Shown: piece after piece, positions 6,304 to 48,769 of the stretch
Position numbering within the stretch: the stretch's first letter is position 1
How the letters are laid out: each line of letters begins with the position of its first letter
Assembly: GCA_016187125.1 (NCBI GenBank)
Contig: JACPKF010000001.1
Span: 38,931-102,930 of the forward strand
DNA from: Candidatus Saccharimonadota bacterium
GTDB taxonomy: Bacteria; Patescibacteriota; Saccharimonadia; Saccharimonadales; UBA10212
Reading direction: 5' to 3'
DNA length: 64,000 nucleotides
The notes under the pieces: model-generated
The model's database searches: none
Seen by the model: the letters and a program-made list of their open reading frames with translations, nothing else
What the model was told of the DNA's origin: nothing
Position numbers and translations under genes: made by a program

Positions 6304-6426
6304 TAAGAGCTCCTCCTAGTCGCGAAGTATGAAGTAGGGAGTATGAAGTATGGAGTTTCTCTATTCTCCATTCTTCATTCTCCATTCTACTATCGCTCTA
6401 ATTTCTATTTTACAATTTATTAATAA
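6304..6426 (-). repeat. rplA-dcd spacer with an imperfect long hairpin built from GTATGAAG / CTTCATTC-type tandem motifs
   Basis: GAGTATGAAGTATGGAG pairs with CTCCATTCTTCATTCTC (15 of 17). It is followed directly by the dcd SD and has no U-tract. Confidence 0.6.
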
Positions 6427-8167: not shown

Positions 8168-8267
8168 ATGCTCCCTTCAGTGGGTGAAACTAGCAAATAG
8201 AAATTAGAAACTAGTATTTTCGCTGATTGCTGATTGCTGATTGCTGATTGCTCAATGCGTAGCATTT
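8168..8267 (-). repeat. nusG-rplK spacer, family C (AACTAG/AAATAG heptads followed by four CTGATTG heptads)
   Basis: Plus strand reads GAAACTAGCAAATAGAAATTAGAAACTAG...GCTGATTGCTGATTGCTGATTGCTGATTGC. Confidence 0.7.
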
Positions 8268-19433: not shown

Positions 19434-19832
19434 CTAGCGTTTGGTGAATTGGCGTTGCTTGCGTGCCCCACGCAGGCCGAACTTTTTGCGTTCTTTTTCT
19501 CTGGGGTCACGTCCGAGTAATTCTGCTCGTTTTAGGGTGGCTTTATAATCTTCGTTTAGCTCCACCAAGGCCTTAGAAATACCTAGTCGTATAGCATCTA
19601 CTTGACTGGCATGGCCACCGCCGTTAACCTTAACGCTAATCATATATTTATCAGGGTCAATTTCCAAAATTGTGAACGGTTTGACTAGTTCATTATATAA
19701 ATATTTACTACCGGCAAAGTACTCGGTGACGGGCCTATCATTAACAATCAAAGCGCCTTTGCCGGTCGCAAGCCTGACACGGGCTGTAGCACTTTTGCGC
19801 CTTCCAAGGGCATAAAAATAACTAGATGCCAT
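19434..19832 (-). CDS. rpsI: 30S ribosomal protein S9
   Basis: MASSYFYALGRRKSATARVRL...RKQRQFTKR. Start re-called to the ATG at 19832, with AAGGGAG upstream. Confidence 0.9.
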   Translation of the reverse strand: MASSYFYALGRRKSATARVRLATGKGALIVNDRPVTEYFAGSKYLYNELVKPFTILEIDPDKYMISVKVNGGGHASQVDAIRLGISKALVELNEDYKATLKRAELLGRDPREKERKKFGLRGARKQRQFTKR

Positions 19833-19915
19833 AGGAAGCTCCCTTCGGTCGCTTAAATAACAATAAGCAATCAACAGTAAACATGTTTGTTATTTTTTTG
19901 CTTATTGCTTTTTGC
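19833..19915 (-). repeat. rplM-rpsI spacer, family D hairpin (AACAATAAGCAA / TTGCTTATTGCT around AAACATGTTT)
   Basis: Arms are complementary at 11 of 12 positions. The right arm runs into the rplM stop. Confidence 0.6.
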
Positions 19916-20374
19916 TTATTGCTCATTGTCTTTAGCCCTGCCTTTCTTTGGCTCAAACTTTTGAGGATTTTGAGCGTTGTGATGATGCTCATTACCGGCA
20001 TAGATTTTTAAACGATCCAAACGGGCTTTACGTAGTTTATTTACTGGCAGCATCCCTCTTACAGAATGCCTAATAACTTCTACGGAGTCTTTTTTAATGC
20101 TTTCTTCTAAGGTCCTCTTATATAAACCTCCGGGAAATCCGCTGTGACGGTAATATGTTTTCCCTCTCAGTTTATTACCAGTAGTAATTAGTGAATCAGC
20201 ATTTATTATAATTACGTAATCCCCAACATCAATGTGAGACGTTATAGTCGGTTTATCCTTACCGAGTAACAGGCGGGCGGCAATTGTAGAAAGACGGCCT
20301 AAAGGGGTCAAAGAAGCGTCCAGAATGTGCCAGACACGCGATACATCAGTTGGCTTGGCGCTATAAGTCTTCAC
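19916..20374 (-). CDS. rplM: 50S ribosomal protein L13
   Basis: MKTYSAKPTDVSRVWHILDASLTPLGRLSTIAARLLLGKDKP is typical L13. It carries a short basic C-terminal tail. Confidence 0.9.
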   Translation of the reverse strand: MKTYSAKPTDVSRVWHILDASLTPLGRLSTIAARLLLGKDKPTITSHIDVGDYVIIINADSLITTGNKLRGKTYYRHSGFPGGLYKRTLEESIKKDSVEVIRHSVRGMLPVNKLRKARLDRLKIYAGNEHHHNAQNPQKFEPKKGRAKDNEQ

Positions 20375-20492
20375 ACTACTCCTTCGGAGCCATTAACCAT
20401 TAGCCATTTACTATTTACCGCGCATTGACCATTAGCCATGAGCCATGGACTAACGGTGAATGGATAACGTATGGTGAACGGTGACGTAGTCA
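20375..20492 (-). repeat. rplQ-rplM spacer, family A (CCATTA/CCATTT arm and GGTGAA/GGTGAACGG arm)
   Basis: CCATTAACCATTAGCCATTTACTATTTACC...AACGGTGAATGGATAACGTATGGTGAACGGTGA. Confidence 0.7.
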
Positions 20493-21038
20493 TTACCTGT
20501 TGCCCCTTCTGCCGGTTCGCCGGGCGGCTTGGGTGACAGCAGTCTTAGCGCTGATCTTTTGCTTATCACTAAGGATTGTTGCTTGGGGCTTAGCTGTAGC
20601 CGATTTCTCGGTTTTAGTATGACTTTTAGTGGTCACTTTTTCCGCAGTTTTGAGTGTTTTATCGTCGCTTTTTATCGACAAGTCATCAACAAAACTGACT
20701 TTGGCCATTTGGGCGTTGTCACCGCGCCTGGATTCGGTTGAGGTCACCCTAAAGTAGCCACTGTTGCGGCCGACTAACCTGGGTGAAAGTTCATCAACTA
20801 ATTTGTGAGCTGCTTCGAGTGTAGCTAAGGAACTAATAACCTGACGTCGATTATGCAAATCGCCTTTTTTAGCCTTGGATATAAGTTTTTCCATATGCGA
20901 AACAACAGCTTTAGCTTTTGGCAGGGTTGTTTGGATTGAGCCTTGCAAAATCAGACTATCGGCTAGTGACTTCATAAGGGCTCGTCTTTGGTCGCGCTGC
21001 CTACCAAATTTCGCGCCTTTGTATCCATGTCTATGCAT
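20493..21038 (-). CDS. rplQ: 50S ribosomal protein L17 with about 60-aa C-terminal extension
   Basis: MHRHGYKGAKFGRQRDQRRALMKSLADSLI. Start re-called to the ATG at 21038, with GGAG upstream. Confidence 0.88.
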   Translation of the reverse strand: MHRHGYKGAKFGRQRDQRRALMKSLADSLILQGSIQTTLPKAKAVVSHMEKLISKAKKGDLHNRRQVISSLATLEAAHKLVDELSPRLVGRNSGYFRVTSTESRRGDNAQMAKVSFVDDLSIKSDDKTLKTAEKVTTKSHTKTEKSATAKPQATILSDKQKISAKTAVTQAARRTGRRGNR

Positions 21039-21146
21039 TAGCGAACTCCGTTCGCAGTAGTAAGTAGTAAGTAGTAAGTAGTAAGCCAGCCACAAAGCTG
21101 CTTTTTATTTGCCTATTGCTTACTACTTCTTGCTTTTTACGCATTT
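21039..21146 (-). repeat. rpoA-rplQ spacer, family D (four AGTAAGT repeats and a GCTTACTAC arm)
   Basis: AGTAGTAAGTAGTAAGTAGTAAGTAGTAAGC...GCTTACTACTTCTTGC. Confidence 0.65.
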
Positions 21147-22111: not shown

Positions 22112-22732
22112 TTAACGCGAGTAGTACTCAATAATTAATTGTTCTTTAATATCAGATTCAGCATCATCTCTTGAAGGTAATCCATTAACGGATAGTTGTA
22201 CTTGCTTGCGGTCGACTTTGATCCAGGTCGGAGTGGATGGTGCCGGTGGGCTTAGCTCGTCAAGATGTTTAAAATATTCGTTCTTTTTGGCATGAGCATG
22301 TAAGGTAATCTTGTCGCCAACCTTAACTCGGATGGATGGAATATCTACTCGGCGGCCATTAAGCATGAAATGGCCATGTGTTACCAGCTGTCTGGCTGCT
22401 CGCCGACTTACGGCAAGGCCACTGCGGTAAATAACATTATCGAGTCGTCGTTCCAAAAATTCTAGCAGCATGGTCCCGGACTGACCTTTTCTACGGACCG
22501 CTTCCTCTAAAAGATTGGCGAATTGTTTTTCAAGTAAACCGTAAAGGCGTTTAACCTTTTGCTTTTCACGAAGCTGTAAACCGTATTGGCTAGATTTAGT
22601 GCGTCTGTAAGTCTGAGTTCCTTGCTGGCCTGGAGGTCCTACGCGCTTGACAAGAACTTTATGAGCTTTGGGGTGAAGTGCATAACTTTCACGACGAGAT
22701 TGCTTGACTATTGAGCTTAAATCTCTGGCCAT
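22112..22732 (-). CDS. rpsD: 30S ribosomal protein S4
   Basis: MARDLSSIVKQSRRESYALHPKAHK. S4 domain reads LDNVIYRSGLAVSRRAARQLVTHGHFMLNGRRVDIPS. Start re-called to 22732, with GGAGG upstream. Confidence 0.9.
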   Translation of the reverse strand: MARDLSSIVKQSRRESYALHPKAHKVLVKRVGPPGQQGTQTYRRTKSSQYGLQLREKQKVKRLYGLLEKQFANLLEEAVRRKGQSGTMLLEFLERRLDNVIYRSGLAVSRRAARQLVTHGHFMLNGRRVDIPSIRVKVGDKITLHAHAKKNEYFKHLDELSPPAPSTPTWIKVDRKQVQLSVNGLPSRDDAESDIKEQLIIEYYSR

Positions 22733-22892
22733 CAGGCAACCTCCGGTTGCAGCAATAAGCCCGCCTTTGCCATGGCTACGGCGGATAGACAATAAGCAAT
22801 AAGCCATAAGCCAGTCCGTTTAAGCGGACTGCTAAGTTGCAATCCTTTTTGCATTTTGCATTTTGCATTTTGCTGAAAAATGTTGAGCATTT
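22733..22892 (-). repeat. rpsK-rpsD spacer containing the 60-nt repeat copy (22748-22812), a GTCCGTTTAAGCGGAC hairpin and three GCATTTT repeats
   Basis: 22748-22812 is near-identical to 23875-23938. Confidence 0.75.
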
Positions 22893-23360
22893 TTAGTTCC
22901 TCTTCGCCTTCCGTGGCCTAACACCTCCATGTGGTGTGCCGGTAACATCTCTGATGTTATCCACGCTAATCTGTCTGGCAACCAAAGTCCTTATAGCCGC
23001 CTCGCGGCCCATGCCAATTCCATTGACAAACACATCTACTTTGCTGACGCCATAAGTTTTGGCAGTTTCTACAGCCTTTTCGGCGGCTATTTGGGCTGCG
23101 TAAGCTGTACCTTTTTTAGAACCACGGAAGCCGCAGCTACCAGCACTGGCAGCTGCGAGGGTATTTCCCTGGATATCCGTAACAGTAATTATAGTGTTAT
23201 TAAAAGTAGCCAAGACATGGACTTGTCCTTGGGTAACAGTCCGGCGATGCTTCTTTTTCTTAACAGTCTTTGGTCTTGTGTCTATAGACGTTTCTTCGGG
23301 TTGGTTACTTTTGCCAACTACTTCTTTTACTTCATCTACGGTAGCTATCTTATCTGCCAT
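22893..23360 (-). CDS. rpsK: 30S ribosomal protein S11 with about 30-aa N-terminal extension
   Basis: GQVHVLATFNNTIITVTDIQGNTLAAASAGSCGFRGSKKGTAYAAQ is the S11 core. Preceded by CGACTGGAAGGAG. Confidence 0.9.
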   Translation of the reverse strand: MADKIATVDEVKEVVGKSNQPEETSIDTRPKTVKKKKHRRTVTQGQVHVLATFNNTIITVTDIQGNTLAAASAGSCGFRGSKKGTAYAAQIAAEKAVETAKTYGVSKVDVFVNGIGMGREAAIRTLVARQISVDNIRDVTGTPHGGVRPRKAKRN

Positions 23361-23472
23361 AAGACACTCCTTCCAGTCGCTTTAGCTACTCGCTGAAAGC
23401 TATGAGCTGAGAGCCGAAATGCAGCGGCTAGGGGCACTAAGCTAGGGACTCTAAGCTGATGATTGTAGGCAA
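23361..23472 (-). repeat. rpsM-rpsK spacer, family B
   Basis: In mRNA sense it reads ATGATTGCCTACAATCATCAGCTTAGAGTCCCTAGCTTAG...TAGCTAAAGCGACTGGAAGGAG, homologous to 28406-28525 and 28922-29044. Confidence 0.7.
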
Positions 23473-23859
23473 TCATGTTTTGGCTGCTACCTTCTTAGCA
23501 GTACCGCCAACGGTAATTTTTTTACCTCGTTTTGTACGAGCATTAGTGCGGGTTCTTTGGCCCCTTGTAGGTAGATTGGCTTGATGCCGCAGTCCCCTAT
23601 AAGCCTTAATGTCTTTCAAGCGCTTAATATTACCGGTTACGACCCTCTGAAGTTCACCCTCCACAGTATAGTTATTGGTTATGATCTCCTGGAGTTTTGA
23701 CAGCTCAGAGTCAGTTAGATCTTTGACTCTAACTGTTTGCTCAACTTTAGCGCTTGACAGTATTCTACTGCTTAGCTGCGGCCCAATACCATATATATAA
23801 GTTAGCGCAATTTGCACTTGCTTGTTATCCGGGATATTTACACCAGCCAGTCTAGCCAC
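23473..23859 (-). CDS. rpsM: 30S ribosomal protein S13
   Basis: (M)ARLAGVNIPDNKQVQIALTYIYGIGPQLS. GTG start with GGAG 7 nt upstream. Confidence 0.92.
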   Translation of the reverse strand: MARLAGVNIPDNKQVQIALTYIYGIGPQLSSRILSSAKVEQTVRVKDLTDSELSKLQEIITNNYTVEGELQRVVTGNIKRLKDIKAYRGLRHQANLPTRGQRTRTNARTKRGKKITVGGTAKKVAAKT

Positions 23860-26249: not shown

Positions 26250-26729
26250 TTATTGCTTATTACTTTTTGCATCTTGCTTCTTTTGGCGTCCGACTTGATC
26301 TACACTTGTAAAACTGCCACCGGCTTTGGTTACCAGTTCTACTGCTGATTTGCTAGCTAATTGTAGTTTCACATCTTTTTTTGAGCTTAGCTCACCATTA
26401 ACAATAAGTTTGACTTTTACAAAAGGCGTTGAAGTTAAGCCGGCTTCAAAAATAGCCTGATTATCAATTACAGCTTTCTTGATAGTTCCCAACTGCCCGG
26501 TATAAACAACTTCAACAGCGGGGGCATGGCTCTTGAAGCCTCTAAGTTTTGGCAACCGCATATATAGTGGCATTTGTCCGCCTTCAAAGCCCGGTCTGAC
26601 GCCGCCGCTTTTGCGTGCACCCTGGCCTTTGGTTCCCCGTCCGGCCGTCTTGCCGCGACCAGCGGCTATACCTCGGCCAGGGCGCCGAGGTATAGCCTGT
26701 CTTGGTACTTCCAGATTGTTATATTTCAT
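26250..26729 (-). CDS. rplO: 50S ribosomal protein L15
   Basis: GRGIAAGRGKTAGRGTKGQGARKSGGVRPGFEGGQMPLYMRLPKLRGF. Confidence 0.9.
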   Translation of the reverse strand: MKYNNLEVPRQAIPRRPGRGIAAGRGKTAGRGTKGQGARKSGGVRPGFEGGQMPLYMRLPKLRGFKSHAPAVEVVYTGQLGTIKKAVIDNQAIFEAGLTSTPFVKVKLIVNGELSSKKDVKLQLASKSAVELVTKAGGSFTSVDQVGRQKKQDAKSNKQ

Positions 26730-26821
26730 AGACTACCTCTCTTCGAGTCTGAGCCTGAGGCTCATCCCTCAGAGTCGAACGACGAGTAGTAGTCTCTAGT
26801 CCAAAGTCTCCAGTTGACAAG

Positions 26822-27409
26822 CTATTCATTATTTTTTCCCTTCGGGGTGTGGTCCTTAATTTTTCTCTTGACTGATAACTGATGACTGTCGACTGTCGAC
26901 TGCGAAGCACTTTGCTTGACCCTAGTTACCCACTTGTCAGCTGAAACCATAGACTGTAGAGCTGCTAGCGTGGCGTAAGCAGTATTGATGCGATTAGATG
27001 AGCCGAATGATTTTGACAGGGCATTTTCGAAGCCACTGACTTCAAGTATTGTCCTGACAATACCGCCAGCGATAAGACCTGTTCCCGGAGCTGCAGGTAA
27101 GATTAAGATGTGCGCCCCACCGACTTTTGCCTCCACTTCGTGAGCTAAGGTGCCTTTATAAATAGGTAGCTTTGTAAGATGTTTTTTAGCTACACCAGTA
27201 GCTTTTGTAACGGCGGCTGAAACGTCCGCGCCCTTACTAACTCCTACGCCTACTTGCCCTTTATGGTCGCCAACCAGAACAAGTGCCTGGAACCTGAACC
27301 GACGACCACCTTTAACCACTCTGGCAACGCGATTAACATAAATAACTCGCTCATCAAAGGTTCTTTCTTCGGTCAATCCTATAGCTTTGTTGGAGGTATA
27401 AGCTGACAT
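26822..27409 (-). CDS. rpsE: 30S ribosomal protein S5 with about 30-aa C-terminal extension
   Basis: [42 protein letters not shown]. Confidence 0.9.
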
Positions 27410-27509
27410 CAGACATTCCTCCCAGTTGCGAGAACTAGTGAATAGTAACTAGGAATTAGTTTTTTCACCGCTTTCTGATGGCCATTTACTAATTGCTTAA
27501 GGAATAGCA
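27410..27509 (-). repeat. rplR-rpsE spacer, family C
   Basis: GAGAACTAGTGAATAGTAACTAGGAATTAG...CCATTTACTAATTGCTTAAGG. Confidence 0.6.
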
Positions 27510-27863
27510 TTAGAACTCTAATCCTTCTGTCCGCGCCGACTCAGCCAAGGCTTTAACACGGCCGTGGTATTTTTTACCGCCTCGGTCAAAGACAACTTTG
27601 TTGATCTTGGCTTTGGCCGCTTTTTTGGCTATTTGAATACCTATCCACGTAGCTTTTTCAGTCATAGTTCCTTGAATTTTTGATCCGGCGGTAGTGGCGT
27701 AAGCAAGAGTAAATCCCTGGTTATCATCTATTATTTGGGCAGTAATATGTAAATTACTTACTCGGACCGCCAGACGAGGTCTATCGGCTGTACCCGACAC
27801 TTTAGCTTTAACTCTATAAGCTCGACGCGCCTGATTGTGGCGTTTACCGGTTAACCTTTCCAT
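27510..27863 (-). CDS. rplR: 50S ribosomal protein L18
   Basis: RPRLAVRVSNLHITAQIIDDNQGFTLAYATT...VVFDRGGKKYHGRVKALAESARTEGLEF. Confidence 0.9.
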   Translation of the reverse strand: MERLTGKRHNQARRAYRVKAKVSGTADRPRLAVRVSNLHITAQIIDDNQGFTLAYATTAGSKIQGTMTEKATWIGIQIAKKAAKAKINKVVFDRGGKKYHGRVKALAESARTEGLEF

Positions 27864-28405
27864 TAGGTTGTCTCCTTGCCGCTTTTACCGCTTTTACGGA
27901 TAATTCTCTCATCCACGTACTTAATGCCCTTGCCTTTATAAGGCTCTGGTTTTTTTAAGGCTCTGATCTCAGCCGCTACCTGCCCAACTTGCTGTTTAGA
28001 GGCGCCACTGACACTGATAATATTTTGTTCCACAGATACCTGAATACCTTCAGGCACTTTGTAGGTAACATCGTGGGAAAAACCAAGGTTAAATTTAAGA
28101 TCGCTGCCAGTCTGCTGGACTCTGTAGCCAACCCCATTAATTTCCAACTTCTTGGTAAAGCCCTTGCTGACTCCCTCTATCATATTACTGATGAGAGAAC
28201 GCATAAGACCGTGCTTAGACTTTACGGATTTTTCTTCACTATTTCGCTCAACTACAACCCGGCCGTCTTCAATTGACACCGTGATTTCCGGCATTTGAAA
28301 TTGCTGGAGGTTACCCTTAAGCCCTTGAACAGATATGAAGTCTTTATCAACAGTTAGATTGACTCCACTAGGTATGTTGATTGGTAATTTTCCAATACGA
28401 CTCAT
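27863..28405 (-). CDS. rplF: 50S ribosomal protein L6
   Basis: MSRIGKLPINIPSGVNLTVDKDFISVQGLKGNL. Preceded by CGACTGCAAGGAG. Confidence 0.9.
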   Translation of the reverse strand: MSRIGKLPINIPSGVNLTVDKDFISVQGLKGNLQQFQMPEITVSIEDGRVVVERNSEEKSVKSKHGLMRSLISNMIEGVSKGFTKKLEINGVGYRVQQTGSDLKFNLGFSHDVTYKVPEGIQVSVEQNIISVSGASKQQVGQVAAEIRALKKPEPYKGKGIKYVDERIIRKSGKSGKETT

Positions 28406-28525
28406 AAAAAGCTCCTTGCAGTCGCTTTAGCTAACAGCTGATAGTCCTTGGCTGATAGCCTGAATGAAGCGGCTAAGAGCTGAGAGCTAAGAGCTAATGG
28501 CTCATGATGAATGTAATGATTCATT
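28406..28525 (-). repeat. rpsH-rplF spacer, family B
   Basis: In mRNA sense it reads ATGAATCATTACATTCATCATGAGCCATTAGCTCTTAGCTCTCAGCTCTTAGCCGCTTCATTCAGGC...GTTAGCTAAAGCGACTGCAAGGAG. Confidence 0.75.
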
Positions 28526-28921
28526 TTAGTAGACCTCGCAAATTAGTTCACCGCCAAGGTTTTTGGACTTGGCTTCCTGTCCGGTCATTAAACCCTTAGA
28601 GGTGGATATTATTATAATTCCACGCCCCCGCTTTACATAAGGTATTTTCTTGCTGTTTATGTAGGTCCGTCTCCCAGGACGACTTAAACGGCCTATTTCG
28701 GCGATAGATGAGGGGTAGTTAGAATCATTGATCGATATCACCAAATATTTACGGTTTTTTTCGGTAGTAGTCGTTATTTGCTGCAAAAAGCCGTTACTCT
28801 TTAAAATCTCCGCTACTCTCTCTTTTAAAATTGAGTGTGGCAAACGAATCTCGTCTTTGTTAACCATCATGGCGTTACGGATACGGCTCAACATATCGGC
28901 TATCGGATCAGTAGAAACCAT
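28526..28921 (-). CDS. rpsH: 30S ribosomal protein S8
   Basis: TDPIADMLSRIRNAMMVNKDEIRLPHSILKERVAEILKSNGF. Preceded by CGACTGAAAGGAG. Confidence 0.9.
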   Translation of the reverse strand: MVSTDPIADMLSRIRNAMMVNKDEIRLPHSILKERVAEILKSNGFLQQITTTTEKNRKYLVISINDSNYPSSIAEIGRLSRPGRRTYINSKKIPYVKRGRGIIIISTSKGLMTGQEAKSKNLGGELICEVY

Positions 28922-29044
28922 CAGACGCTCCTTTCAGTCGCTCCAGCTGTGAGCTGATGGCTGTTAGTAAAGAGCCGGATTGAAGCGGCTAAGGACTCTA
29001 AGCTAAGGACTCTAAGCTGATGATGAATGTAATGAATCATATTC
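28922..29044 (-). repeat. rpsN-rpsH spacer, family B
   Basis: In mRNA sense it reads ATGATTCATTACATTCATCATCAGCTTAGAGTCCTTAGCTTAGAGTCCTTAGCCGCTTCAATCCGGC...GGAGCGACTGAAAGGAG. Confidence 0.75.
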
Positions 29045-29314: not shown

Positions 29315-29499
29315 CTAAACGCCTCCTTTCGTCGGTTCAGTTAACAGTTTCCTATTACCGATTACCTGTGAGTTATCTATTACCGGTGGCCAACTGTTAA
29401 ATGACAGATGTGAATTTAATAGTAAACCCGAAAAGGCCCCGTTGGGACCCTCGGGTCCCTTTACGGGATGGTAAATGGTAAATGGTAAATTGAGCAATT

Positions 29500-30093
29500 T
29501 CATTGCGACTTCTCCTTTTCGAATGGCATTCCCATTTTTTCAAGTAGGGCTTTGGAATGCTCTGGACTGATTGATTTAATTACAAACACAACTTGCAGGC
29601 CGTGAGGCGTGGCAGTGTCTTCAAAACTTAGTTCTGGAAAAACAGATTGATCCGTCAGTCCAAGACTATAGTTACCTTGCTTGTCAAATGACTTAAGACT
29701 GACACCGTGAAAATCACGCAACCTGGCCAAAACTAAATTTATCAAACGGTCTGCAAACTCATACATTGGCTGCCCGTTCAAGGTTACTTTAAGTCCAATC
29801 TTACTGCCTTCGCGCAGTTTAAAACTAGCAATCGATTGCTTAGCAGTAGTAGCTATCGGTTTTTGACCGGTGATTTTACTCAGAGTGTTGGCAGCCACAT
29901 CCAGTAACTTTTTCTCATCTTTAGCTTTACCAAGTCCGACATTGACAATAATTTTCTCTAGACGGGGCGCTTGATGTATGTTCTTAAGCTTCAACTCGGC
30001 TGTAAGCTGAGGCGCGTAATCGTTAATATACAAAGTCTTAAGTCGAGCCTGATAGCCAGAAGATTTAGTCGACGCGGATTTAATACCAGTCAT
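29500..30093 (-). CDS. rplE: 50S ribosomal protein L5
   Basis: RLKTLYINDYAPQLTAELKLKNIHQAPRLEKIIVNVGLG. Start re-called to the ATG at 30093, with GGAGG upstream. Confidence 0.9.
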   Translation of the reverse strand: MTGIKSASTKSSGYQARLKTLYINDYAPQLTAELKLKNIHQAPRLEKIIVNVGLGKAKDEKKLLDVAANTLSKITGQKPIATTAKQSIASFKLREGSKIGLKVTLNGQPMYEFADRLINLVLARLRDFHGVSLKSFDKQGNYSLGLTDQSVFPELSFEDTATPHGLQVVFVIKSISPEHSKALLEKMGMPFEKEKSQ

Positions 30094-30217
30094 TAGGGCA
30101 GCCTCCGACTTATAAAACAAACTACATGGTTTTTCCTATCGGATTTTTTGGGGTAAGTCCAAACTCCGCAGACAGCGGGATCGGTCCATGGTTTTTTCCT
30201 TAATTCCAAATATATCA
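30094..30217 (-). repeat. rplX-rplE spacer, family F (homologous to 34845-34937)
   Basis: GGTTTTTCCTATCGGATTTTTTGGGGTAAGTCCAAACTCCGCAGACAGCGGGATCGGTCCATGGTTTTTTCCTTAATTCCAA. Confidence 0.7.
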
Positions 30218-30604
30218 TTATTTAAGTTCCTTACCACTAGACTTCAAGATACGTCGTTTCGAGCCGTCGTTAAAAGATTTAAAACCGATTCTTGAAGGTT
30301 TTTTTGAACCAGAATCAAGTAGACCAACTTTGCTTACCCAGATCGGCTTGGTGATTTCAATAATTCCGCCTTGAGGTGATAGGCGAGCCGGTTTTTTGTG
30401 GCGTTTGACGATGTTAATACCTTCCACGGTAACTTTATTCAGAGCCGGATGAATTTGAAGTATTTTTCCGGTATGGGCTTTATACTTTCCGCTTCTAATC
30501 ATTACTTCGTCGCCTTTTTTCAACCGAATCTTATACACCTTTTTGGTTATCGCTTTTTGCCTGTCCACCGTAGCCTTGGCGAAGGCGGACTTTTTGCTTG
30601 TCAT
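30218..30604 (-). CDS. rplX: 50S ribosomal protein L24 (N- and C-terminally extended as called)
   Basis: [30 protein letters not shown] core. The ATG overlaps the rplN stop (ATGA). The first 25 codons contain the 32-nt repeat element, so the true start is uncertain (alternative GTG near 30529). Confidence 0.85.
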
Positions 30605-31885: not shown

Positions 31886-32302
31886 TTATTGCTCGTCCTT
31901 CATGATAAAACCGCTGTTAAGCGGCAATTTATGACCTGCCAAACGTATAGCTTCACGAGCTATATCTTCACTTACACCATCCATTTCAAATATAACTGTG
32001 CCTGGCTTAACTTTAGCGACAAAAAATTCTGGGTTACCTTTACCGCTGCCCATTTTGGTGCCGAGCGGCTTGAGGCTTACAGGAATATGCGGGAAAACTC
32101 GAATCCATATTTGGCCACCACGTTTGATATACCGAGTCATAGCTTGGCGAGCTGCTTCTATTTGGCGACTGCTGATACGTTGGCTGTCCTTGGAGATAAG
32201 ACCATAATGGCCATAAGCCAATTCGGTCATAGAAGTAGCACTGCCGCCGTGAATGCGGCCTTTACGAACTTTACGGTACTTTGTGCGTGATGGCATTAAC
32301 AT
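31886..32302 (-). CDS. rplP: 50S ribosomal protein L16
   Basis: MLMPSRTKYRKVRKGRIHGG... Confidence 0.93.
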   Translation of the reverse strand: MLMPSRTKYRKVRKGRIHGGSATSMTELAYGHYGLISKDSQRISSRQIEAARQAMTRYIKRGGQIWIRVFPHIPVSLKPLGTKMGSGKGNPEFFVAKVKPGTVIFEMDGVSEDIAREAIRLAGHKLPLNSGFIMKDEQ

Positions 32303-32393
32303 GCTCTACCTCCGGTAAAGCCATTAACCATTAGCCATTTACTATTTACCATTGTGAACGGTGAACGGTGAACGGTGAATGGGAATGACGGAG
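32303..32393 (-). repeat. rpsC-rplP spacer, family A (three CACCGTT repeats pairing with AATGGTA-type repeats)
   Basis: In mRNA sense, CATTCACCGTTCACCGTTCACCGTTCAC-A-ATGGTAAATAGTAAATGGCTAATGGTTAATGG. ACCGTT/AATGGT pairs include a G.U wobble only on the transcribed strand. Confidence 0.7.
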
Positions 32394-33026
32394 TCATGTC
32401 GTTTCGCCTCGGTAAATCCAAACTTTAACTCCTATAACTCCGGCTCCGGGGTATGTGGCTGTGGCACTGGCAAAATCAATATCGGCTCTTAAGGTATGGA
32501 GTGGCACACTACCCTGAACTTCTTTTTCGCGCCGACTCATTTCATTACCGCCCAAACGACCGGCAATCTCAATTCTAACTCCTTTGGCTCCAGCGCGAAT
32601 AGTCGAAGATGCTGCCATTTTTATGGCTCTACGGAAAGCAATCCGTTTTTGCAGCTGGTGAGCTATGTTTTCTGCTACCAATTTAGCTTGCAGCTCAGGC
32701 CGTTTGATTTCCTCGATATTGACACGGACAGGCACACCATAAAGCTTCTCAACTTCATTCTTAAGCTCACTAGCACCAGTACCACCACGACCGATAACAA
32801 CACCGGCCTTAGCGGTCTGAATAGTAACTGTCACCAGATTAGGTGAACGCTCAATATCAACTTTGCTGACAGCCGCACGGTTACCAAGCTTAGCGATAAT
32901 TAGGCGGCGAGCAGCTAAATCTTGCATCAAATAGGTAGCGTAATCTTTTTTGTTAACAAACCATTTACTGCGCCAATCCTTATTAACTTGAAGTCGCATA
33001 CTTATTGGGTTGACTTTTTGACCCAT
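32394..33026 (-). CDS. rpsC: 30S ribosomal protein S3
   Basis: MGQKVNPISMRLQVNKDWRSKWF. Preceded by GCGACTGGAAGGAGCGACTG-ATG. Confidence 0.93.
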   Translation of the reverse strand: MGQKVNPISMRLQVNKDWRSKWFVNKKDYATYLMQDLAARRLIIAKLGNRAAVSKVDIERSPNLVTVTIQTAKAGVVIGRGGTGASELKNEVEKLYGVPVRVNIEEIKRPELQAKLVAENIAHQLQKRIAFRRAIKMAASSTIRAGAKGVRIEIAGRLGGNEMSRREKEVQGSVPLHTLRADIDFASATATYPGAGVIGVKVWIYRGETT

Positions 33027-33135
33027 CAGTCGCTCCTTCCAGTCGCTTGAGGAACTAGAAAATAGTAAATAGAAACTAGCCGACCGAATCCTACAGCTGT
33101 TTTTACTAATTTCTGATTACTAATTGCTAATTTCA
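33027..33135 (-). repeat. rplV-rpsC spacer, family C
   Basis: GAGGAACTAGAAAATAGTAAATAGAAACTAG...TACTAATTTCTGATTACTAATTGCTAATTTC. Confidence 0.65.
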
Positions 33136-33516
33136 CTACTCTGACTCCTTTTTGGTCACGAGCTCTCTTTTTTTACTGACTCTTTTCTCGCCATCGACGA
33201 TGACACGGATGTGGCTAGTTTTGCGGGCAAACCGCAGTGCGCGTCCACGGGCTGCGGATCTATACCTTTTGAGCCGTGATCCTGGAGTGACAGTAATTTC
33301 AGTGATGTTTAAAGAATCAGGCTTAAAATTGTGGTTATGCTCAGCGTTAGCTCGTGCGCTAATTACGGCCTGCTTGACTGCTTCCGCGGCTCGTCTGGGT
33401 GTATGATCAAGAATCACAATAGCATCAGCGACACTACGTCCACGCACCAAAGCTGCCACTACGCTAACTTTACGCGGGCTCATTCTAACACCTTTATAAA
33501 TAGCCTGGACTGTCAT
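33136..33516 (-). CDS. rplV: 50S ribosomal protein L22
   Basis: [37 protein letters not shown]. The ATG overlaps the rpsS stop. Confidence 0.9.
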
Positions 33517-33836: not shown

Positions 33837-33943
33837 CGTTAACACTCCTCCCGTTCAGGTATAGGGTATGCCGTATAGGGTATAAAGTATGCAGCTTCAT
33901 TTTTATACCTAATACTTAATACCGAATACGAAATACTCACTAC
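33837..33943 (-). repeat. rplB-rpsS spacer with a TATAGGGTA / TACCTAATAC-type dyad
   Basis: GGTATAGGGTATGCCGTATAGGGTATAAAGTATG...TATACCTAATACTTAATACCGAATACGAAATAC. Confidence 0.55.
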
Positions 33944-34780
33944 TTATTTCCTCTTTCCTAAGTGGCGGCTTCTGATAATAAACTTGTTAGTTGCCTTACG
34001 CCGCCTGGTTTTATAACCCAGGGTTTTTTGGCCCCACGGAGTCGTTGGCGGACGGGCCATGCGGTGACGGCCACCATCGCCACCGCCGTGTGGGTGATCA
34101 GCCGCCGCCATAACGACACCTCGAACGGTTGGTCTGATACCCATACGACGTTTACGGCCGGCGCTGCCGATTTTAATATTCTGGTGTTGCTCATTGCCCA
34201 CCGGTCCGATTGAAGCCATGGAATTGATACCGACCAGTCTAATTTCTCCGCTTGGCAATCGGACTTGGGCAGAGATTTCATCTTTAGCAACTAATTGGGC
34301 GCTGGAACCGGCGGTCCGAGCCAGTTGCCCGCCGCGACCAGATTGAAGTTCAACCGCGTGGATAACGGTACCAACTGGAATGTTTTTTAGAGGCAAACGA
34401 TTACCAATTTTTATGGAGGCTTCTTCTTCAACACTGACTTTTCTGCCCGGTTTCATACCCTTAGCTGCCAGTACATAGTGACGGTGTCCATCTTGATCTT
34501 TAATAAGAGCTATACGAGCGCTGCGGTTAGGATCGTATTCTATTTGTTCGACAGTAGCCGTCGTCCCCGGCGCCAGAGCGAAGTTAAGCAAGCGGTAAAA
34601 ACGACGTACGCCACCGCCTCGGTGGCGGGTTGTGATTCGGCCTTGATTGTTGCGTCCCTCGGAGCCTTTTTTAATCATTGTTAAGCCGCGCAGCGGCTTT
34701 TTGGTGGTAACACTGTCAAAGTCCTGAGTGCTCATGCCTCTTCTGGCTGGAGATGTCGGCTTGTAATCACGAACAGCCAT
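33944..34780 (-). CDS. rplB: 50S ribosomal protein L2
   Basis: 278 aa containing GRNNQGRITTRHRGGG and MAAADHPHGGGDGG. Confidence 0.94.
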   Translation of the reverse strand: MAVRDYKPTSPARRGMSTQDFDSVTTKKPLRGLTMIKKGSEGRNNQGRITTRHRGGGVRRFYRLLNFALAPGTTATVEQIEYDPNRSARIALIKDQDGHRHYVLAAKGMKPGRKVSVEEEASIKIGNRLPLKNIPVGTVIHAVELQSGRGGQLARTAGSSAQLVAKDEISAQVRLPSGEIRLVGINSMASIGPVGNEQHQNIKIGSAGRKRRMGIRPTVRGVVMAAADHPHGGGDGGRHRMARPPTTPWGQKTLGYKTRRRKATNKFIIRSRHLGKRK

Positions 34781-34937
34781 TACTGCGCCTCCGGCTTATA
34801 GGACAAACCTACAGTACTATCACCCCGCAAAACTTGTTTTGCGGGGACCCCGGTTTTTCCTATCGGACCTTTTGGAATAAATCCAAATCCGCCTGGGCGG
34901 ACCGGTCCTTTCTTTTCCCTTAACTTCAAGAGGGACA
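34781..34937 (-). repeat. rplW-rplB spacer, family F (homologous to 30094-30217), plus a CCCCGCAAAAC..GTTTTGCGGGG hairpin
   Basis: GGTTTTTCCTATCGGACCTTTTGGAATAAATCCAAATCCGCCTGGGCGGACCGGTCCTTTCTTTTCCCTTAACTTCAA. Confidence 0.7.
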
Positions 34938-35264
34938 TTACTTCTTCTCCTTCTTGGAGGAATTATCAGAATCGGCAAAAAATGGCAGTTTATCTCCGTC
35001 TTTCAACGTGACATAGGCTTTATGGCTGGCTGGCCGGGCAGTTTTAACAAACTTGCCTCGCCTTTTATAGGATCTAAGCGGCTTGGGCGCGACTTGGTTC
35101 AAACGCACGGCTTGAACGCCTACTTTATATTGGGAAGTAACTGCCCTGGCAACTTCGAACTTATTGATACCAGCCGGCACGTCAAAAACATAGGTGTTTA
35201 GCGTTTCGCTGGCAGCATAGGCCTTTTCACTCAGCCTTGGCTTTAGCGCTATTAGCTTAAACAT
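34938..35264 (-). CDS. rplW: 50S ribosomal protein L23
   Basis: LKPRLSEKAYAASETLNTYVFDVPAGINKFEVARAV. Lies between rplD and rplB. Confidence 0.85.
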   Translation of the reverse strand: MFKLIALKPRLSEKAYAASETLNTYVFDVPAGINKFEVARAVTSQYKVGVQAVRLNQVAPKPLRSYKRRGKFVKTARPASHKAYVTLKDGDKLPFFADSDNSSKKEKK

Positions 35265-35405
35265 CTACAGCTCCTCCAGAGCCATTTAACGTTAGCCATT
35301 TACCGTTTTCCGTACATTTACCATTAGTCATTAACCATTTGTTAACGGTAAACGGATAACGCATGGTGAAGGCTGAACGGTGAAGGGTGAACGAGAAATG
35401 ACCTG
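35265..35405 (-). repeat. rplD-rplW spacer, family A
   Basis: About 90% identical to 36062-36160 over roughly 95 nt (CCATTTA.C.TTAGCCATTTACCGTTTT.CGTACATTTACCATTAGTCATTAACCATTTGTTAACGGT.AACG). Confidence 0.8.
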
Positions 35406-36044
35406 TCATTTCTTTTCCCCTAGCCATTCATGAATAATATCTAAAGCTTTTTTACTGATTACGATTTGATCGGCATTCAAAATATCTAAAACACTTAAAT
35501 AGTTAGTTTGTATGGCTTTGACCAGTGGTAAGTTGCGAGTTGCTCGTTCAACTAGATCATCTTTGAGACTTACAACTAGTAGCACGGAGCCTTGTGAGCC
35601 AATTTTGTTGAGTAGGTTGAGCGTTGGTTTTACTTTGCCGTCCTGGCATTCAAATGTTTCAATAATTTTGATTTTATCGGCTTGAGCCGCCAGACTAAGA
35701 GCCTGACGAAGAGCCAAACGTTTAGCAGAAGTTGTAATCTTGCGAGTGTAATTCTCATTTCCGGTTGGGCCAAAAGCCACACCACCGCCAGTCCAAATAG
35801 GATTTCTGGATGATCCAAAGCGGGCTCTGCCCGTACCTTTCTGACGCCAGGGTTTTTGGCCACCGCCACGAACCTGGCTTCGTTTTTTTGTCTGAGCTAA
35901 ATTTGGCCGGCTGTTGGCCAAATGAGCTAGGTAGACGTCCTTTAACAGTTGATGATTCTTTACATCAACATCGAAAATTGCCTTATCTAGCTTAGCAGGA
36001 GACGAGGCTTTGTTACCGGATTTCGTGAATGTAGTAACAGCCAT
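35406..36044 (-). CDS. rplD: 50S ribosomal protein L4
   Basis: MAVTTFTKSG...RGGGQKPWRQKGTGRARFGSSRNPIWTGGGVAFGP. Start re-called to 36044, with GAAGGAG upstream. Confidence 0.9.
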   Translation of the reverse strand: MAVTTFTKSGNKASSPAKLDKAIFDVDVKNHQLLKDVYLAHLANSRPNLAQTKKRSQVRGGGQKPWRQKGTGRARFGSSRNPIWTGGGVAFGPTGNENYTRKITTSAKRLALRQALSLAAQADKIKIIETFECQDGKVKPTLNLLNKIGSQGSVLLVVSLKDDLVERATRNLPLVKAIQTNYLSVLDILNADQIVISKKALDIIHEWLGEKK

Positions 36045-36186
36045 CACATTGCTCCTTCGGATCCATTTACCATTAGCCATTTACCGTTTTTCGTACATTT
36101 ACCATTAGTCATTAACCATTTGTTAACGGTGAACGAGTAACTCACGGTGAACTGTGAAGGGTAAAAGGTAAAAGATAACGATGTCA
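36045..36186 (-). repeat. rplC-rplD spacer, family A
   Basis: See 35265-35405. In mRNA sense, the arms TTCACCGTTAAC and GTTAATGAC... flank AAATG. Confidence 0.8.
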
Positions 36187-36804
36187 TTACTTTGCCCCTT
36201 TTAATAAAACCAGACCCTTTTTGGGGCCTGGTATTGCGCCTTCTACGCCTATGACACCGAGATCTGGGTTAATAATAGCGATGCGAAGGTTCTTGGTTGT
36301 GACGCGCACATGACCCATCTGACCGGCCATTTTTTTGCCTGGAAAAATGCGTTGGGGGAACATCGAGCCAATCGAACCTGGCCGACGATAACTGCGCCCG
36401 CCGTGCGTTTTACGTCCTCTATGGAAATTATGGCGGGCAATTGTGCCAGCAAATCCCTTGCCCTTTGTAATACCAGTGGCACTGACTTTATCGCCGACTT
36501 CAAAAATATCGGCGCTAAGTTGGTCGCCGATATTTAGCTGGTTTGGTTCGCTAGCTGTGCGGAATTCACGGGTGATCTTTGAGGTGGCTTTAGCCTTCTT
36601 GAGGTGTCCGGCCTGCGGCTTAGCCAGTTTTTTAGCTGTTTCAAAGCCGATCTGCAGGGCATCATAGCCATCAATTTCAGTCGTTTTAACCTGAGTAATA
36701 ACGTTCGGACTGGTTGCCAGCAAAGTCACAGCGGTAGCCACTCCATTGTCTTGGATAATGCTGGTCATACCTAATTTGCGTGTGATCAGTGCTTTCACTG
36801 ACAT
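36187..36804 (-). CDS. rplC: 50S ribosomal protein L3
   Basis: ITRKLGMTSIIQDNGVATAVTLL...TKGKGFAGTIARHNFHRGRKTHG. Confidence 0.93.
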   Translation of the reverse strand: MSVKALITRKLGMTSIIQDNGVATAVTLLATSPNVITQVKTTEIDGYDALQIGFETAKKLAKPQAGHLKKAKATSKITREFRTASEPNQLNIGDQLSADIFEVGDKVSATGITKGKGFAGTIARHNFHRGRKTHGGRSYRRPGSIGSMFPQRIFPGKKMAGQMGHVRVTTKNLRIAIINPDLGVIGVEGAIPGPKKGLVLLKGAK

Positions 36805-43515: not shown

Positions 43516-43995
43516 CTAGGTCCTCGCAAAGTGGGCGAAAGCCCGGTTGGCTTCGGCCATTTTATGGACGTCTTCTTTTTTCTTGACGGCTCCGCCGGCA
43601 GTGTTATAAGCGTCTATCAGCTCCTGAGCTATTCGGTCTTCCATGCTCATACCCTTACGGCCTCGCGCGGCCTCGACAAACCACATTACGGACAAGTGCT
43701 GTTGGCGCTGGCCTTTAACTTCGAACGGTATCTGGTAATTGGCTCCGCCAACCCGGCGCGAGCGAGTTTCCAGATGCGGCTGGATGTTTTTCATGGCTTG
43801 TTCAAAAACTTCCAGCGGGTTTTTAACTTTAAGCTTATCGGCAGCCTTTTGCATACCGTTGTAAACCAGCCGTTCGGCTAGCTGTTTTTTACCATCCAGC
43901 ATCACCCGATTGATAAGCTTAGCAACTTGGGTGCTGTTATATAATCGGTCGGGCTCAACTGGGCGTACCAGAGATTTTGTTGTCTTACGCGGCAC
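43516..43995 (-). CDS. rpsG: 30S ribosomal protein S7
   Basis: MPRKTTKSLVRPVEPDRLYNSTQVAKLINRVMLDGKKQLAERLVY. Confidence 0.93.
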   Translation of the reverse strand: MPRKTTKSLVRPVEPDRLYNSTQVAKLINRVMLDGKKQLAERLVYNGMQKAADKLKVKNPLEVFEQAMKNIQPHLETRSRRVGGANYQIPFEVKGQRQQHLSVMWFVEAARGRKGMSMEDRIAQELIDAYNTAGGAVKKKEDVHKMAEANRAFAHFART

Positions 43996-44100
43996 GACGA
44001 GCTCCGGTCGTAGAAATTAGAAAGTAGAAACTAGGAACTAGCTTTGCTGCGCTTAATTGCTTATTGCTAATTGCTAATTGCTTAAAAATGCTTTGCATTT
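43996..44100 (-). repeat. rpsL-rpsG spacer, family C
   Basis: GTAGAAATTAGAAAGTAGAAACTAGGAACTAG...CTTAATTGCTTATTGCTAATTGCTAATTGC. Confidence 0.65.
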
Positions 44101-44511
44101 TTATTTTCCTTTTTTAGCTCCATACTTTGAGCGGCCTTTCTTACGGTCTTGGACTCCTTGCAAATCCAGGTTACCACGCACAATGTGGTAGCGCACACCA
44201 GGCAAGTCTTTTACTCGTCCACCCCTGACTAGTACTACTGCGTGTTCTTGTAAATTGTGTCCCTCGCCGCCAATGTAGGCCCAGACTTCGTGACCATTAG
44301 TTAGGCGGACACGGGCAACCTTACGCAAGGCCGAGTTAGGTTTCTTGGGAGTCTTGGTGGTTACACGAATGCATACCCCGCGCTTAAACGGCGCCGGCTT
44401 GTCATAGCTTTTAGTTTGCAGGTTATTAACAATGCGCTGAAGGGCTGGAGACTTAGTTTTAGTGCCCGCTAACTTACGTGGCTTACGAATTAGTTGATTT
44501 ACTGTCGGCAT
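44101..44511 (-). CDS. rpsL: 30S ribosomal protein S12
   Basis: [13 protein letters not shown]...[19 protein letters not shown]. Start re-called to 44511, with CGACGAAAGGAG upstream. Confidence 0.94.
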
Positions 44512-44665
44512 TAGGTAGCTCCTTTCGTCGCTACAACTACCATTTGCCATTTATCACTAGCCAAATTATTTTCCATTTGCCATTTATCCAGAGTTTTTGT
44601 AAATGCTAAATGGTACCTAATTGGTAAATGCGAATTGGTAATTGGTAAATTTCTTGTTGAGTCTA
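44512..44665 (-). repeat. rpoC-rpsL spacer, family A variant (CCATTTGCCATTTATC twice / AATTGGTAAATG arm)
   Basis: CCATTTGCCATTTATCAC...CCATTTGCCATTTATCC...AAATGGTACCTAATTGGTAAATGCGAATTGGTAATTGGTAAAT. Confidence 0.6.
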
Positions 44666-48505: not shown

Positions 48506-48551
48506 ATGCAGCTCCTTTCAGTCGCTTAGGTAAAATATGAAATGCTAGATG

Positions 48552-48680
48552 TGAAGCGCTCCACGGACTAAAGTCCATGGCTTCAGGCTTGCGGCTTTCG
48601 GAGCGTGGAACCCCGCACCGAAAGCCAGAACTGGCATTCAGCCCCGAACTAAAGTTCGAGGCTTTCTGGTGCGTGGGTAA
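48552..48680 (-). repeat. 130-nt structured repeat, copy 2 (element sense is the minus strand, i.e. mRNA sense, in the rpoB-rpoC spacer)
   Basis: Its reverse complement aligns with 9477-9606 at about 85% identity, with indels. Hairpins are CCTCGAAC-TTTA-GTTCGGGG and CCATGGAC-TTTA-GTCCGTGG. Confidence 0.75.
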
Positions 48681-48769
48681 GAAGCTAGCTGCGATGAATG
48701 TTCGTATCTGATTATTGCTTATTACTATTTGCCTGTCCACCGTAGCCTTGGCGAAGGCGGGCTTATTGC

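Follow-up and report, generated by a model that had tools for sequence, protein, structure and literature searches.

The CGACTG-Shine-Dalgarno box of Saccharibacteria ribosomal protein operons: putative restart cassette of repeated palindromic inserts

Rickettsia palindromic elements (RPEs) are short palindromic repeats that survive in genes by staying translatable (PMC10969869), and the coupling of translation between neighbouring genes has been explained by two models, RNA unfolding and reinitiation (PMC12548453). In this work we analysed a 64-kb window, that is, the whole stretch of 64,000 nucleotides taken from contig JACPKF010000001.1 of a Candidatus Saccharimonadota bacterium, in which a conserved box, CGACTGNAAGGAG, joins CGACTG to a Shine-Dalgarno (SD) sequence in front of start codons of genes for ribosomal proteins (r-proteins) and RNA polymerase. 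By its S3 protein the window belongs to Candidatus Saccharibacteria / Saccharimonadales (TM7, in the candidate phyla radiation), and its genome is an NCBI metagenome-assembled genome (MAG). The reading that we propose, with a probability of about 0.55, is that this box is the 3'-terminal restart cassette of repeated palindromic inserts, which have colonised the r-protein and RNA-polymerase gene junctions in one group of Saccharibacteria.

Among the described systems the RPEs are the closest analogue, followed by the repeats of the miniature inverted-repeat transposable element (MITE) and repetitive extragenic palindromic (REP) type and by classical coupled junctions, and each of them departs from this locus in at least one defining feature. 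The RPEs share with the inserts the condition of palindromic repeats of ~100-150 bp in a host-dependent bacterium of reduced genome, surviving in essential genes because they are translatable. However, they lie in frame inside host open reading frames (ORFs) and become part of the host protein, whereas the inserts described here are separate mini-ORFs between cistrons, preceded by the stop codons of the host genes and provided with their own SD cassette. The 7-nt periodicity and the unrelated arms of the inserts also set them apart from RPEs, and no sequence relationship is expected.

The MITE, Correia, ERIC (enterobacterial repetitive intergenic consensus) and REP-BIME (bacterial interspersed mosaic element) families resemble the inserts in being multi-copy, non-autonomous, hairpin-forming, co-transcribed with the flanking genes and able to alter expression. 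As in MITEs, near-identical copies of ~100 nt occur at unrelated sites with no transposase inside. Those families are nevertheless untranslated and have defined terminal inverted repeats or a REP consensus, whereas in this locus an ORF is kept, the elements occupy only cistron junctions in one orientation, and no terminal inverted repeats are evident: the 5' ends hold no complement of the box, and the small hairpins that make up the 5' modules differ from those of the 3' modules. Unlike in REP/BIME repeats, the sense frames are open, and a search limited to the window found neither a REP-associated tyrosine transposase (RAYT) nor a Y1 gene. Finally, coupled junctions such as rplK-rplA, rpmI-rplT and MS2 coat-lysis show the same ATGA/TGATG overlaps, an SD inside the upstream ORF and a ribosome-binding site structure that is opened by the ribosome (PMC12548453). 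The difference is that here the upstream ORF is a dispensable, fast-evolving insert instead of a real gene, and that the structure around the ribosome-binding site is a module common to many junctions. Our literature searches brought up no account of either the inserts or the box.

The box and the inserts that end in it

The window contains six exact copies of CGACTGNAAGGAG, all of them on the minus (coding) strand, on which nearly all the genes of the window lie; dinucleotide-preserving shuffles had a mean of 0.01 copies, and none of 100 reached at least six. A preliminary description, made from the sequence alone, had placed exact copies before six starts, and this was confirmed: in every case (rplJ, rpsK, rplF, rpsH, rpsC and rpoC, with gene identities verified by Pfam) the end of GGAG lies 6 nt from the start codon. 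The variants that it listed at rpsI, rpsL, rpsN, dcd and rpsE (the last one GCAACTGGGAGG) are all present as well. Across 41 box instances the distance from SD to start is 4-8 nt, within the range of 4-10 nt 5' of the start codon that characterises an extended SD. The conserved unit extends over ~25 nt, longer than first reported, and reads RAG-CGAC-Y-GNA-R-GGAG-C-GTCTG-ATG.

Bare CGACTG is only ~2-fold enriched, and on both strands (39 observed, 18 expected), so that the composite box is the meaningful, start-region-specific unit. The 20 plus-strand copies, also ~2-fold enriched, correspond to CAGTCG in the mRNA sense within coding regions, an excess that likely comes from codon or dipeptide bias. 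It had also been proposed that a CGACTG copy fills the spacer between SD and start in rpsC and in a hisG-like gene. The rpsC copy stands and AACGACT does precede a 56-aa ORF (56997-57167), but the hisG-like label finds no support, the neighbour gene being histidyl-tRNA synthetase. A scan of 800 kb of rRNA-flanking Saccharibacteria loci gave one chance-like match to the box; therefore, the box is restricted to a lineage and/or to this operon context.

In the window, spacers of 85-160 nt separate the gene junctions from rpoB to rpsI, together with nusG>rplK, and the box is the 3' module that these inserts share. We compared the window with loci of Saccharibacteria relatives (L005, L007, L016 and L205-L210). 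Such spacers are absent in L208-L210, whose S3 is 85-87% identical; in these, neighbouring genes touch or overlap, with the SD located within the upstream one. L005, L007, L016 and L205-L207 carry spacers, often at junctions different from those of the window, which tend to end in GCGAC[TC]G[AG]A[AG]GGAG even where the remaining spacer is unrelated. Besides the genome of the window, the MAGs GCA_016176605.1, GCA_041643115.1 and GCA_964356865.1 bear the box, whereas GCA_035717985.1 and GCA_013815775.1 are relatives with empty sites; samples that contain these organisms include the SRR12113383-85 and SRR12113430 series. Within a single genome, inserts from separate junctions reach 97% identity (six copies in L016), and copies of 90-97% identity occur within L016 and within L205. 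The same family also appears at different junctions across genomes, as in L205 rplV>rpsC and L206 rpsS>rplV (91% over 97 nt). In the window itself, the rpsM>rpsK element is a paralogue of those at rpsH>rplF and rpsN>rpsH (75-80% identity). The comparison of filled and empty sites places the insert between the upstream stop and the downstream ATG, with the original ATG still in place at the 5' end of the insert (the window and the L209 empty site both read TAAGAATATG). The near-identical copies at different junctions, together with the filled and empty sites, indicate a copy-and-paste element family. The old ATG at the 5' end and the new one at the 3' end would amount to a target-site duplication of at most 3 nt, indistinguishable from chance or selection. 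The region 19.8-36.9 kb shows no enrichment in promoter- or terminator-like sites, in keeping with co-transcription.

The inserts are imperfect palindromes, with a mean z-score of -1.9 for the minimum free energy (MFE) of the whole element and 43% of the values below -2; their folds on both strands are only moderately stable. Internally they show a 7-nt periodicity (identity of 0.434 at lag 7 and 0.379 at lag 14, compared with ~0.25 elsewhere) and no signal at lag 3. The heptamers vary by insert: TTCACCG/AATGGTA, AGCAATT/CTAGTTT, GCAAAAT, AGCTTAG and others were observed (minus strand of 19800-36900 and 43900-48800, and the loci L205, L206, L207, L005, L007 and L016). We considered the TIGR-Tas arrays of Patescibacteria and judged them unrelated, given the 7-nt period and the location in r-protein operons here, as against units that reportedly measure ~36 nt. 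The possibility of a long hairpin closing over the downstream start codon was also discarded, since pairing of the start region with the 5' end was no better than in shuffles. At the 5' end of the inserts there are conserved modules of two types, (G)TCATGAC-TNC-GTCAT-TCCC and AAATGC-NNN-GCATTTTTAAGC, which are small hairpins that hold the AUG of the mini-ORF; in 22 of 51 elements the MFE structure has this AUG base-paired.

Pairing of the box with the 16S rRNA and with itself

For the following, the box is numbered G1 C2 G3 A4 C5 Y6 G7 N8 A9 R10 G11 G12 A13 G14 C15. To know the 16S 3' ends, metagenome contigs were scanned with a TM7-specific 16S signature, and 78 loci reached the gene end, one of which was confirmed as a full-length bacterial small-subunit rRNA. 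All 78 ends read CCUCCUUU (CCTCCTTT) and 71 read CCUCCUUUCU; in 65 of these the end is GGAUUACCUCCUUUCUAGGGAG / GGATTACCTCCTTTCTAGGGAG, continuing with AGGGAG (CUAGGGAG) and then with a variable internal transcribed spacer. The segment G7-N-A-A-G-G-A-G14 is complementary to the Saccharibacteria tail 3'-CUUUCCUC-5'. The duplex GAAAGGAG : CCUCCUUUC has 8 bp at normal spacing, and G-N-AAGGAG reaches these 8 bp when N is A. The proposal that (G)AAAGGAG is an extended SD for the usual 16S tail is thus borne out by the pairing of G-N-AAGGAG with ends of the CCUCCUUUCU type.

Complementarity to the tail covers only positions 7-14. Against the tail and the sequence that follows it CGACU finds no complement, with U6 opposite U and C5 opposite A, in agreement with the earlier view that the CGACTG part lies beyond 16S pairing. 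That view would have fallen with a 16S tail complementary to CGACUG, and none was found among the 78 TM7-type ends, a set that does not include the 16S of this genome. A longer or different tail, for example one ending in ...CCUCCUUUCAGUCG, through which CGACUG would lengthen the helix between SD and anti-SD, has in our opinion a practically negligible chance of being the explanation: we found no evidence that supports it, while every one of the 78 ends reads CCUCCUUU, 65 continue with CUAGGGAG and none has CAGUCG (CAGTCG in DNA, 0/78). The box therefore resembles the Firmicutes-like extended SD of the AGAAAGGAGG type in the 8-bp pairing of GAAAGGAG with CCUCCUUUC at normal spacing, and differs from it in five or six conserved upstream bases (GCGACU) that are unable to pair with the rRNA.

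A partner for these bases is present within the box itself, where G1C2G3A4C5Y6 is self-complementary to R10G11G12A13G14C15 through the pairs 1-15, 2-14, 5-11 and 6-10. The appositions G3.A13 and A4.G12 form a tandem G.A internal loop flanked by C-G pairs, and the apex is a G-N-A triloop, whose free middle base is the N of the box; this explains why it varies. We examined this structure on sites with GAC-N4/5-GGAG followed by a start codon, chosen blind to the tested pairs; the selection comprised 41 sites from 9 genomes, all of them at true starts of genes. Among the 36 instances of 15 nt, positions 6/10 are U-A in 18, C-G in 13, U.G in one and mismatched in 4, positions 1/15 are G-C in 26, G.U in 3, A-U in one and C-G in one, and position 2, opposite G14, is C or U in all 36 aligned instances. 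In the 14-nt variants GCGAC-GAAA-GGAGC and CCGAC-GAAA/ACAA-GGAGG the stem is kept with a tetraloop and the outer pair is swapped. RNAfold gave ((..((...))..)) as the MFE structure for all three box variants, and RNAalifold arrived unaided at the same structure from the 36 sequences of 9 genomes.

Paired cells amount to 93.8%, compared with 87.4% in shuffled alignments, and the covariation score is 0.314, compared with 0.193; none of 500 shuffles reached either value, and slid registers are paired in only 26-60%. At the orthologous rpsC site, CUGGAAGG in the window is replaced by CCGGAGGG in L206 and L005, which is a compensatory double change. Furthermore, other inserts end in 3' modules that are fully Watson-Crick, such as GCCUCC-GAA-GGAGGC (-10.6 kcal/mol), CUUUACC-GGA-GGUAGAG, GCGAAC-GGAG-UUCGC and GCAACC-GGAG-GUUGC. 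When the sequence was kept up to the start codon, the local structure near the SD was -3.8 kcal/mol after inserts and -1.9 at tight junctions (p = 5e-7). The most plausible reading makes CGAC the 5' strand of a conserved mini-hairpin around the SD, with which the repeated, palindromic and apparently translated inserts end. Of the roles offered before, the base of the spacer hairpins comes closest, with the correction that CGAC is not at the base of a long hairpin and belongs to a separate 15-nt mini-hairpin, the 3' strand of which is the SD. The CAGTCG complements suggested for the 5' ends of the spacers do not appear in the spacer sequences.

Two further observations concern the box sequence. 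In L208, one of the relatives poor in spacers, a box-like ACGACCGTATGGAGC-GTCGG (3052-3066) precedes a glycosyltransferase gene, and its CGAC can pair with the downstream GTCG leaving the SD in the loop; SD hairpins are consequently found beyond the r-protein operons. In the window, 28921-28945 (minus strand) allows a second reading, in which 13 nt of the start region form a direct repeat, GGAGCGACTG-AAA-GGAGCGTCTG-ATG, and 33026-33050 (minus strand) likewise as AGCGACTG-GAAGG-AGCGACTG-ATG. These repeats hint at an origin of the box by tandem duplication of a unit formed by SD, spacer and ATG. As an account of the box, this candidate fits rpsH and rpsC and may explain how it arose, but it leaves the covariation of 6/10 and 1/15 unexplained, and it was set aside.

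Tandem G.A motifs are classic protein-binding RNA motifs, and the invariant G3 A4 ... G12 A13 could suggest a hairpin that is bound by a protein or cleaved by an RNase, yielding stable monocistronic mRNAs with a protective 5' hairpin. This alternative seems improbable to us. Flanked by C-G pairs, the tandem G.A appositions make up a symmetric 2x2 internal loop and lack the 3-nt bulge of a kink-turn, no Rfam family matches the box, no cleavage-site mark is present in the sequence, and the mini-ORFs would not need to be kept if the spacers were merely cut out. An Rfam scan of the whole window at gathering thresholds returned 5 tRNAs only, with no known r-protein leader or autoregulatory RNA. On the other side, the long imperfect hairpins upstream could be substrates of RNase III, as in Correia elements (PMC10969869).

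A more serious rival, which we still consider unlikely, is a mobility signal at the level of DNA. The box and the 5' hairpins (for example ATGAC-TNC-GTCAT) would be subterminal single-stranded DNA hairpins for an HUH/Y1 transposase of the IS200/IS605 or RAYT type, and the SD a passenger that lets the insertions survive. The copy-and-paste distribution with its filled and empty sites, the single orientation of all copies and the conserved small hairpins at both ends of elements with unrelated arms agree with it; the covariation and the tandem G.A pairs fit a hairpin of the sense DNA strand equally well, and departures of the G.U type are not favoured over those of the A.C type. However, no transposase was found in the 64-kb window or in the fetched loci of relatives, to which the search was confined, and no terminal inverted repeat is complementary to the box. 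The fixed 6-8 nt to the start codon and the overlap of stop and start are translational features, the rplJ box occurs without an element, and a single orientation is also expected from selection for translation.

Mini-ORFs and the coupling of translation

The inserts, called spacers before, are better described as mini-ORFs that recur, are apparently mobile and overlap the flanking genes with their starts and stops; the box is the 3' end that they have in common. Considering gaps of 70-230 nt in the window and in L205-L207, a stop-free sense frame crosses 56 of 67, compared with 10 of 67 in antisense and with 20.6±3.3 (maximum 33) in 300 dinucleotide shuffles; the gaps with no open frame belong to leaders or promoters, in front of tuf, rplC, rplJ and rplL. 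In 60 spanning ORFs, with a median mini-ORF length of 36 codons, the most frequent positions of the ATG relative to the end of the upstream stop are -4 (ATGA overlap, 19), +2 (11) and -1 (TAATG, 8), and the stop lies at -2 (TGATG) from the downstream start in 26 and at +1 (ATGA) in 15. The overlap or tiny gap typical of coupled junctions is found for the stop in 41/60, and the ATG, which in general overlaps the upstream stop or follows it by 1-5 nt, falls within -11..+6 of that stop in 51/60. Some of these mini-ORFs have already been called by gene callers as "hypothetical proteins" without Pfam match, and the mini-ORF peptides matched no Pfam family. The irregular 7/8-nt spacing and the periodic mismatches between arms appear to keep stops out of the frame that is read, judging from the arm of a single element, rpsC>rplP.

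The box occurs in each of the three reading frames (28, 8 and 5 of 41 instances) and is therefore a nucleotide signal and not a peptide signal. We see very little room for the view that it is conserved as a C-terminal mini-ORF peptide, Ala-Thr-Glu-Arg-Ser-Val-stop. The 28 instances that share one frame do encode A-T-x-R/G-S, but the other 13 have the same nucleotides in the other two frames, which counts strongly against it; the change of A10 to G, by which a base pair is restored, turns Arg into Gly, codon periodicity is absent, and Pfam gives no match. From these sequence features we infer that the inserts are relay mini-ORFs in which selection acts on translation through the insert and not on the peptide, and our confidence that the mini-ORFs would be translated is fairly high.

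Translational coupling is the probable function of the box, which would act as a restart cassette with a structured SD. Its strong SD of 8 bp, the weak partner of that SD in the same molecule and a stop overlapping the next start are the architecture expected for coupling by RNA unfolding and/or reinitiation (PMC12548453). A ribosome that finishes the upstream gene would restart on the mini-ORF, read through the palindrome, melt the weak SD hairpin and terminate at the UGA that overlaps the next AUG; the 8-bp helix between SD and anti-SD would hold the ribosome, which could then reinitiate. The coupling would thereby survive an insertion of 100 nt, and the CGAC strand might keep the SD occupied, or insulated, when no ribosome arrives from upstream, as in the RNA-unfolding model. 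We hold with high confidence that the box is the element tail plus an extended SD, and with moderate confidence the hairpin and its function in coupling. For the wider proposal, that undescribed selfish palindromic elements built of heptamer repeats have spread through essential Saccharibacteria operons and are tolerated because each copy is a self-contained translational relay, we would give even odds.

Several points weigh against this interpretation. Translation of the mini-ORFs is deduced from sequence, the 78 16S tails come from metagenome TM7-type loci and not from the 16S of this genome, and the exact rplJ box stands in a leader with no mini-ORF. The mini-hairpin is weak, with -1.3 to -3.0 kcal/mol, so that the duplex of SD and anti-SD would displace it easily and its regulatory effect could be small. 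The covariation concerns mostly one pair (6-10) and could reflect two old subfamilies instead of repeated compensation. G.U-type departures (7) are no commoner than those of the A.C type (about 5-6), and selection specific to RNA is for this reason not demonstrated. With the sequence cut 2 nt past the SD, a rougher test that we regard as uninformative gave no signal of pairing between the SD and upstream sequence. An outer stem (RGA / UCU, with a bulged G) that would extend the mini-hairpin is only ~50% paired and was discarded as not general.

Coordinates, neighbouring genes and significance

The boxes, predicted mini-ORFs and 5' modules are collected in Table 1.

Table 1. Box copies, predicted mini-ORFs and insert 5' modules (window coordinates unless a relative is named)
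Feature	Position	Strand	Remarks
rplF box	28411..28425 (exact core 28412-28424)	-	GCGACTGCAAGGAGC; 15-nt mini-hairpin including the SD; copy singled out in the preliminary description
rpsH box	28927..28941 (core 28928-28940)	-	GCGACTGAAAGGAGC, then GTC TGA-TG: mini-ORF stop overlaps rpsH ATG
rpsK box	23366..23380 (core 23367-23379)	-	GCGACTGGAAGGAGT; positions 1-15 are G.U
rpsC box	33032..33046 (core 33033-33045)	-	GCGACTGGAAGGAGC, then GAC TGA-TG
rpoC box	48511..48525 (core 48512-48524)	-	GCGACTGAAAGGAGC; within the 93-codon rpoB>rpoC mini-ORF
rplJ box	3198..3212 (core 3199-3211)	-	ACGACTGGAAGGAGC; in a 314-nt leader; sole exact copy outside a spanning mini-ORF
rpsI variant box	19838..19852	-	GCGACCGAAGGGAGC; C6-G10 replaces U6-A10
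dcd variant box	6309..6323	-	GCGACTAGGAGGAGC
rpsL 14-nt variant	44518..44531	-	GCGACGAAAGGAGC; GCGAC-GAAA-GGAGC, same stem, GNRA tetraloop
rpsN 14-nt variant	29322..29335	-	CCGACGAAAGGAGG; CCGAC-GAAA-GGAGG, outer pair swapped to C-G
rpsH>rplF mini-ORF	28402..28524	-	40 codons; ATG 1 nt past rpsH stop; TGA overlaps rplF ATG (ATGA); has box
rpsN>rpsH mini-ORF	28921..29040	-	39 codons; ATG at the rpsH ATG position of the L209 empty site; stop TGATG; has box
rpsM>rpsK mini-ORF	23345..23476	-	43 codons; ATGA overlap with rpsM stop; has box
rplV>rpsC mini-ORF	33026..33136	-	36 codons; GTG start; stop TGATG; has box
rpoB>rpoC mini-ORF	48492..48773	-	93 codons; ATGA overlap with rpoB stop; has box
rpoC>rpsL	44511..44576	-	frame open over the whole gap; late first ATG (21 codons); stop TGATG; 14-nt variant
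rplE>rpsN mini-ORF	29315..29503	-	62 codons; has CCGACGAAAGGAGG variant
rplM>rpsI mini-ORF	19822..19926	-	34 codons; has GCGACCGAAGGGAGC variant
rpsL>rpsG mini-ORF	43985..44098	-	37 codons; 3' module ACGAC-CGGAGCUC-GUCGU, SD in loop
rplC>rplD mini-ORF	36044..36187	-	47 codons; TTCACCG / AATGGTA heptamer family
rplD>rplW mini-ORF	35257..35409	-	50 codons; TTCACCG / AATGGTA heptamer family
rplW>rplB mini-ORF	34780..34938	-	52 codons
rplB>rpsS mini-ORF	33839..33940	-	33 codons; GTG start
rpsC>rplP mini-ORF	32296..32397	-	33 codons; 3' module is a perfect SD hairpin, CUUUACC-GGA-GGUAGAG
rplX>rplE mini-ORF	30093..30218	-	41 codons
rplR>rpsE mini-ORF	27409..27510	-	33 codons; 3' module GCAACTGGGAGG
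rpsE>rplO mini-ORF	26719..26829	-	36 codons; same element family at infA>rpsM in L205
rpsK>rpsD mini-ORF	22732..22890	-	52 codons; 3' module GCAACC-GGAG-GUUGC
rpoA>rplQ mini-ORF	21031..21144	-	37 codons; 3' module GCGAAC-GGAG-UUCGC
rplQ>rplM mini-ORF	20371..20493	-	40 codons; 3' module GGCUCC-GAA-GGAGU
nusG>rplK mini-ORF	8164..8265	-	33 codons
Insert 5' modules, window	32380-32397, 36170-36187, 20476-20493, 44080-44100, 8245-8267
Insert 5' modules, relatives	L205 10640, 14315; L207 8360, 11150

Other genes of the region deserve mention. Two r-protein genes were located by reading the sequence and not by family search: rpmJ (L36) is apparently at 23990-24106 (minus strand), in the infA-rpsM gap that the gene model left as a spacer, and rpmG (L33) apparently at 11360-11561 (minus strand), beside the tRNA-Trp/Thr cluster. 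In L205 and L207-L210 an L36 gene (PF00444) is called at the infA-rpsM position, and this region is common to relatives. L206 carries, between infA and rpsM in the r-protein operon, a member of the "23S rRNA intervening sequence protein" family (PF05635; 18375-18770). The rpmD gene (L30) is absent between rpsE and rplO, where the gap 26730-26821 holds a mini-ORF insert; this absence fits the known loss of uL30 in bacteria of the candidate phyla radiation (CPR) (PMC9297842). Ribosomal protein L1 (6427-7452, minus strand) has 341 aa and a Pfam L1 domain at residues 146-335 only, which leaves an N-terminal extension of 145 residues or a mis-set start. Finally, 3507-5573 (minus strand) encodes a protein of 688 aa with a thymidylate-kinase domain in the first ~210 residues and a remainder with no Pfam match.

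R-protein operons are among the most conserved and compact bacterial loci, and the genomes of CPR bacteria and Saccharibacteria are strongly reduced, so that repeat inserts of ~100 nt that differ between close relatives are unexpected. In Saccharibacteria annotations they give rise to dozens of spurious "hypothetical proteins" and of misplaced start codons, and they may disturb the alignments of marker genes and the assemblies on which CPR phylogeny relies. If the inserts do act as translational relays, they would show by what means a mobile or expanding repeat can enter essential operons that are tightly coupled while stoichiometric expression is preserved. The box would then be a natural, portable coupling cassette of ~25 nt, and the locus would offer a system to separate the two models of translational coupling.

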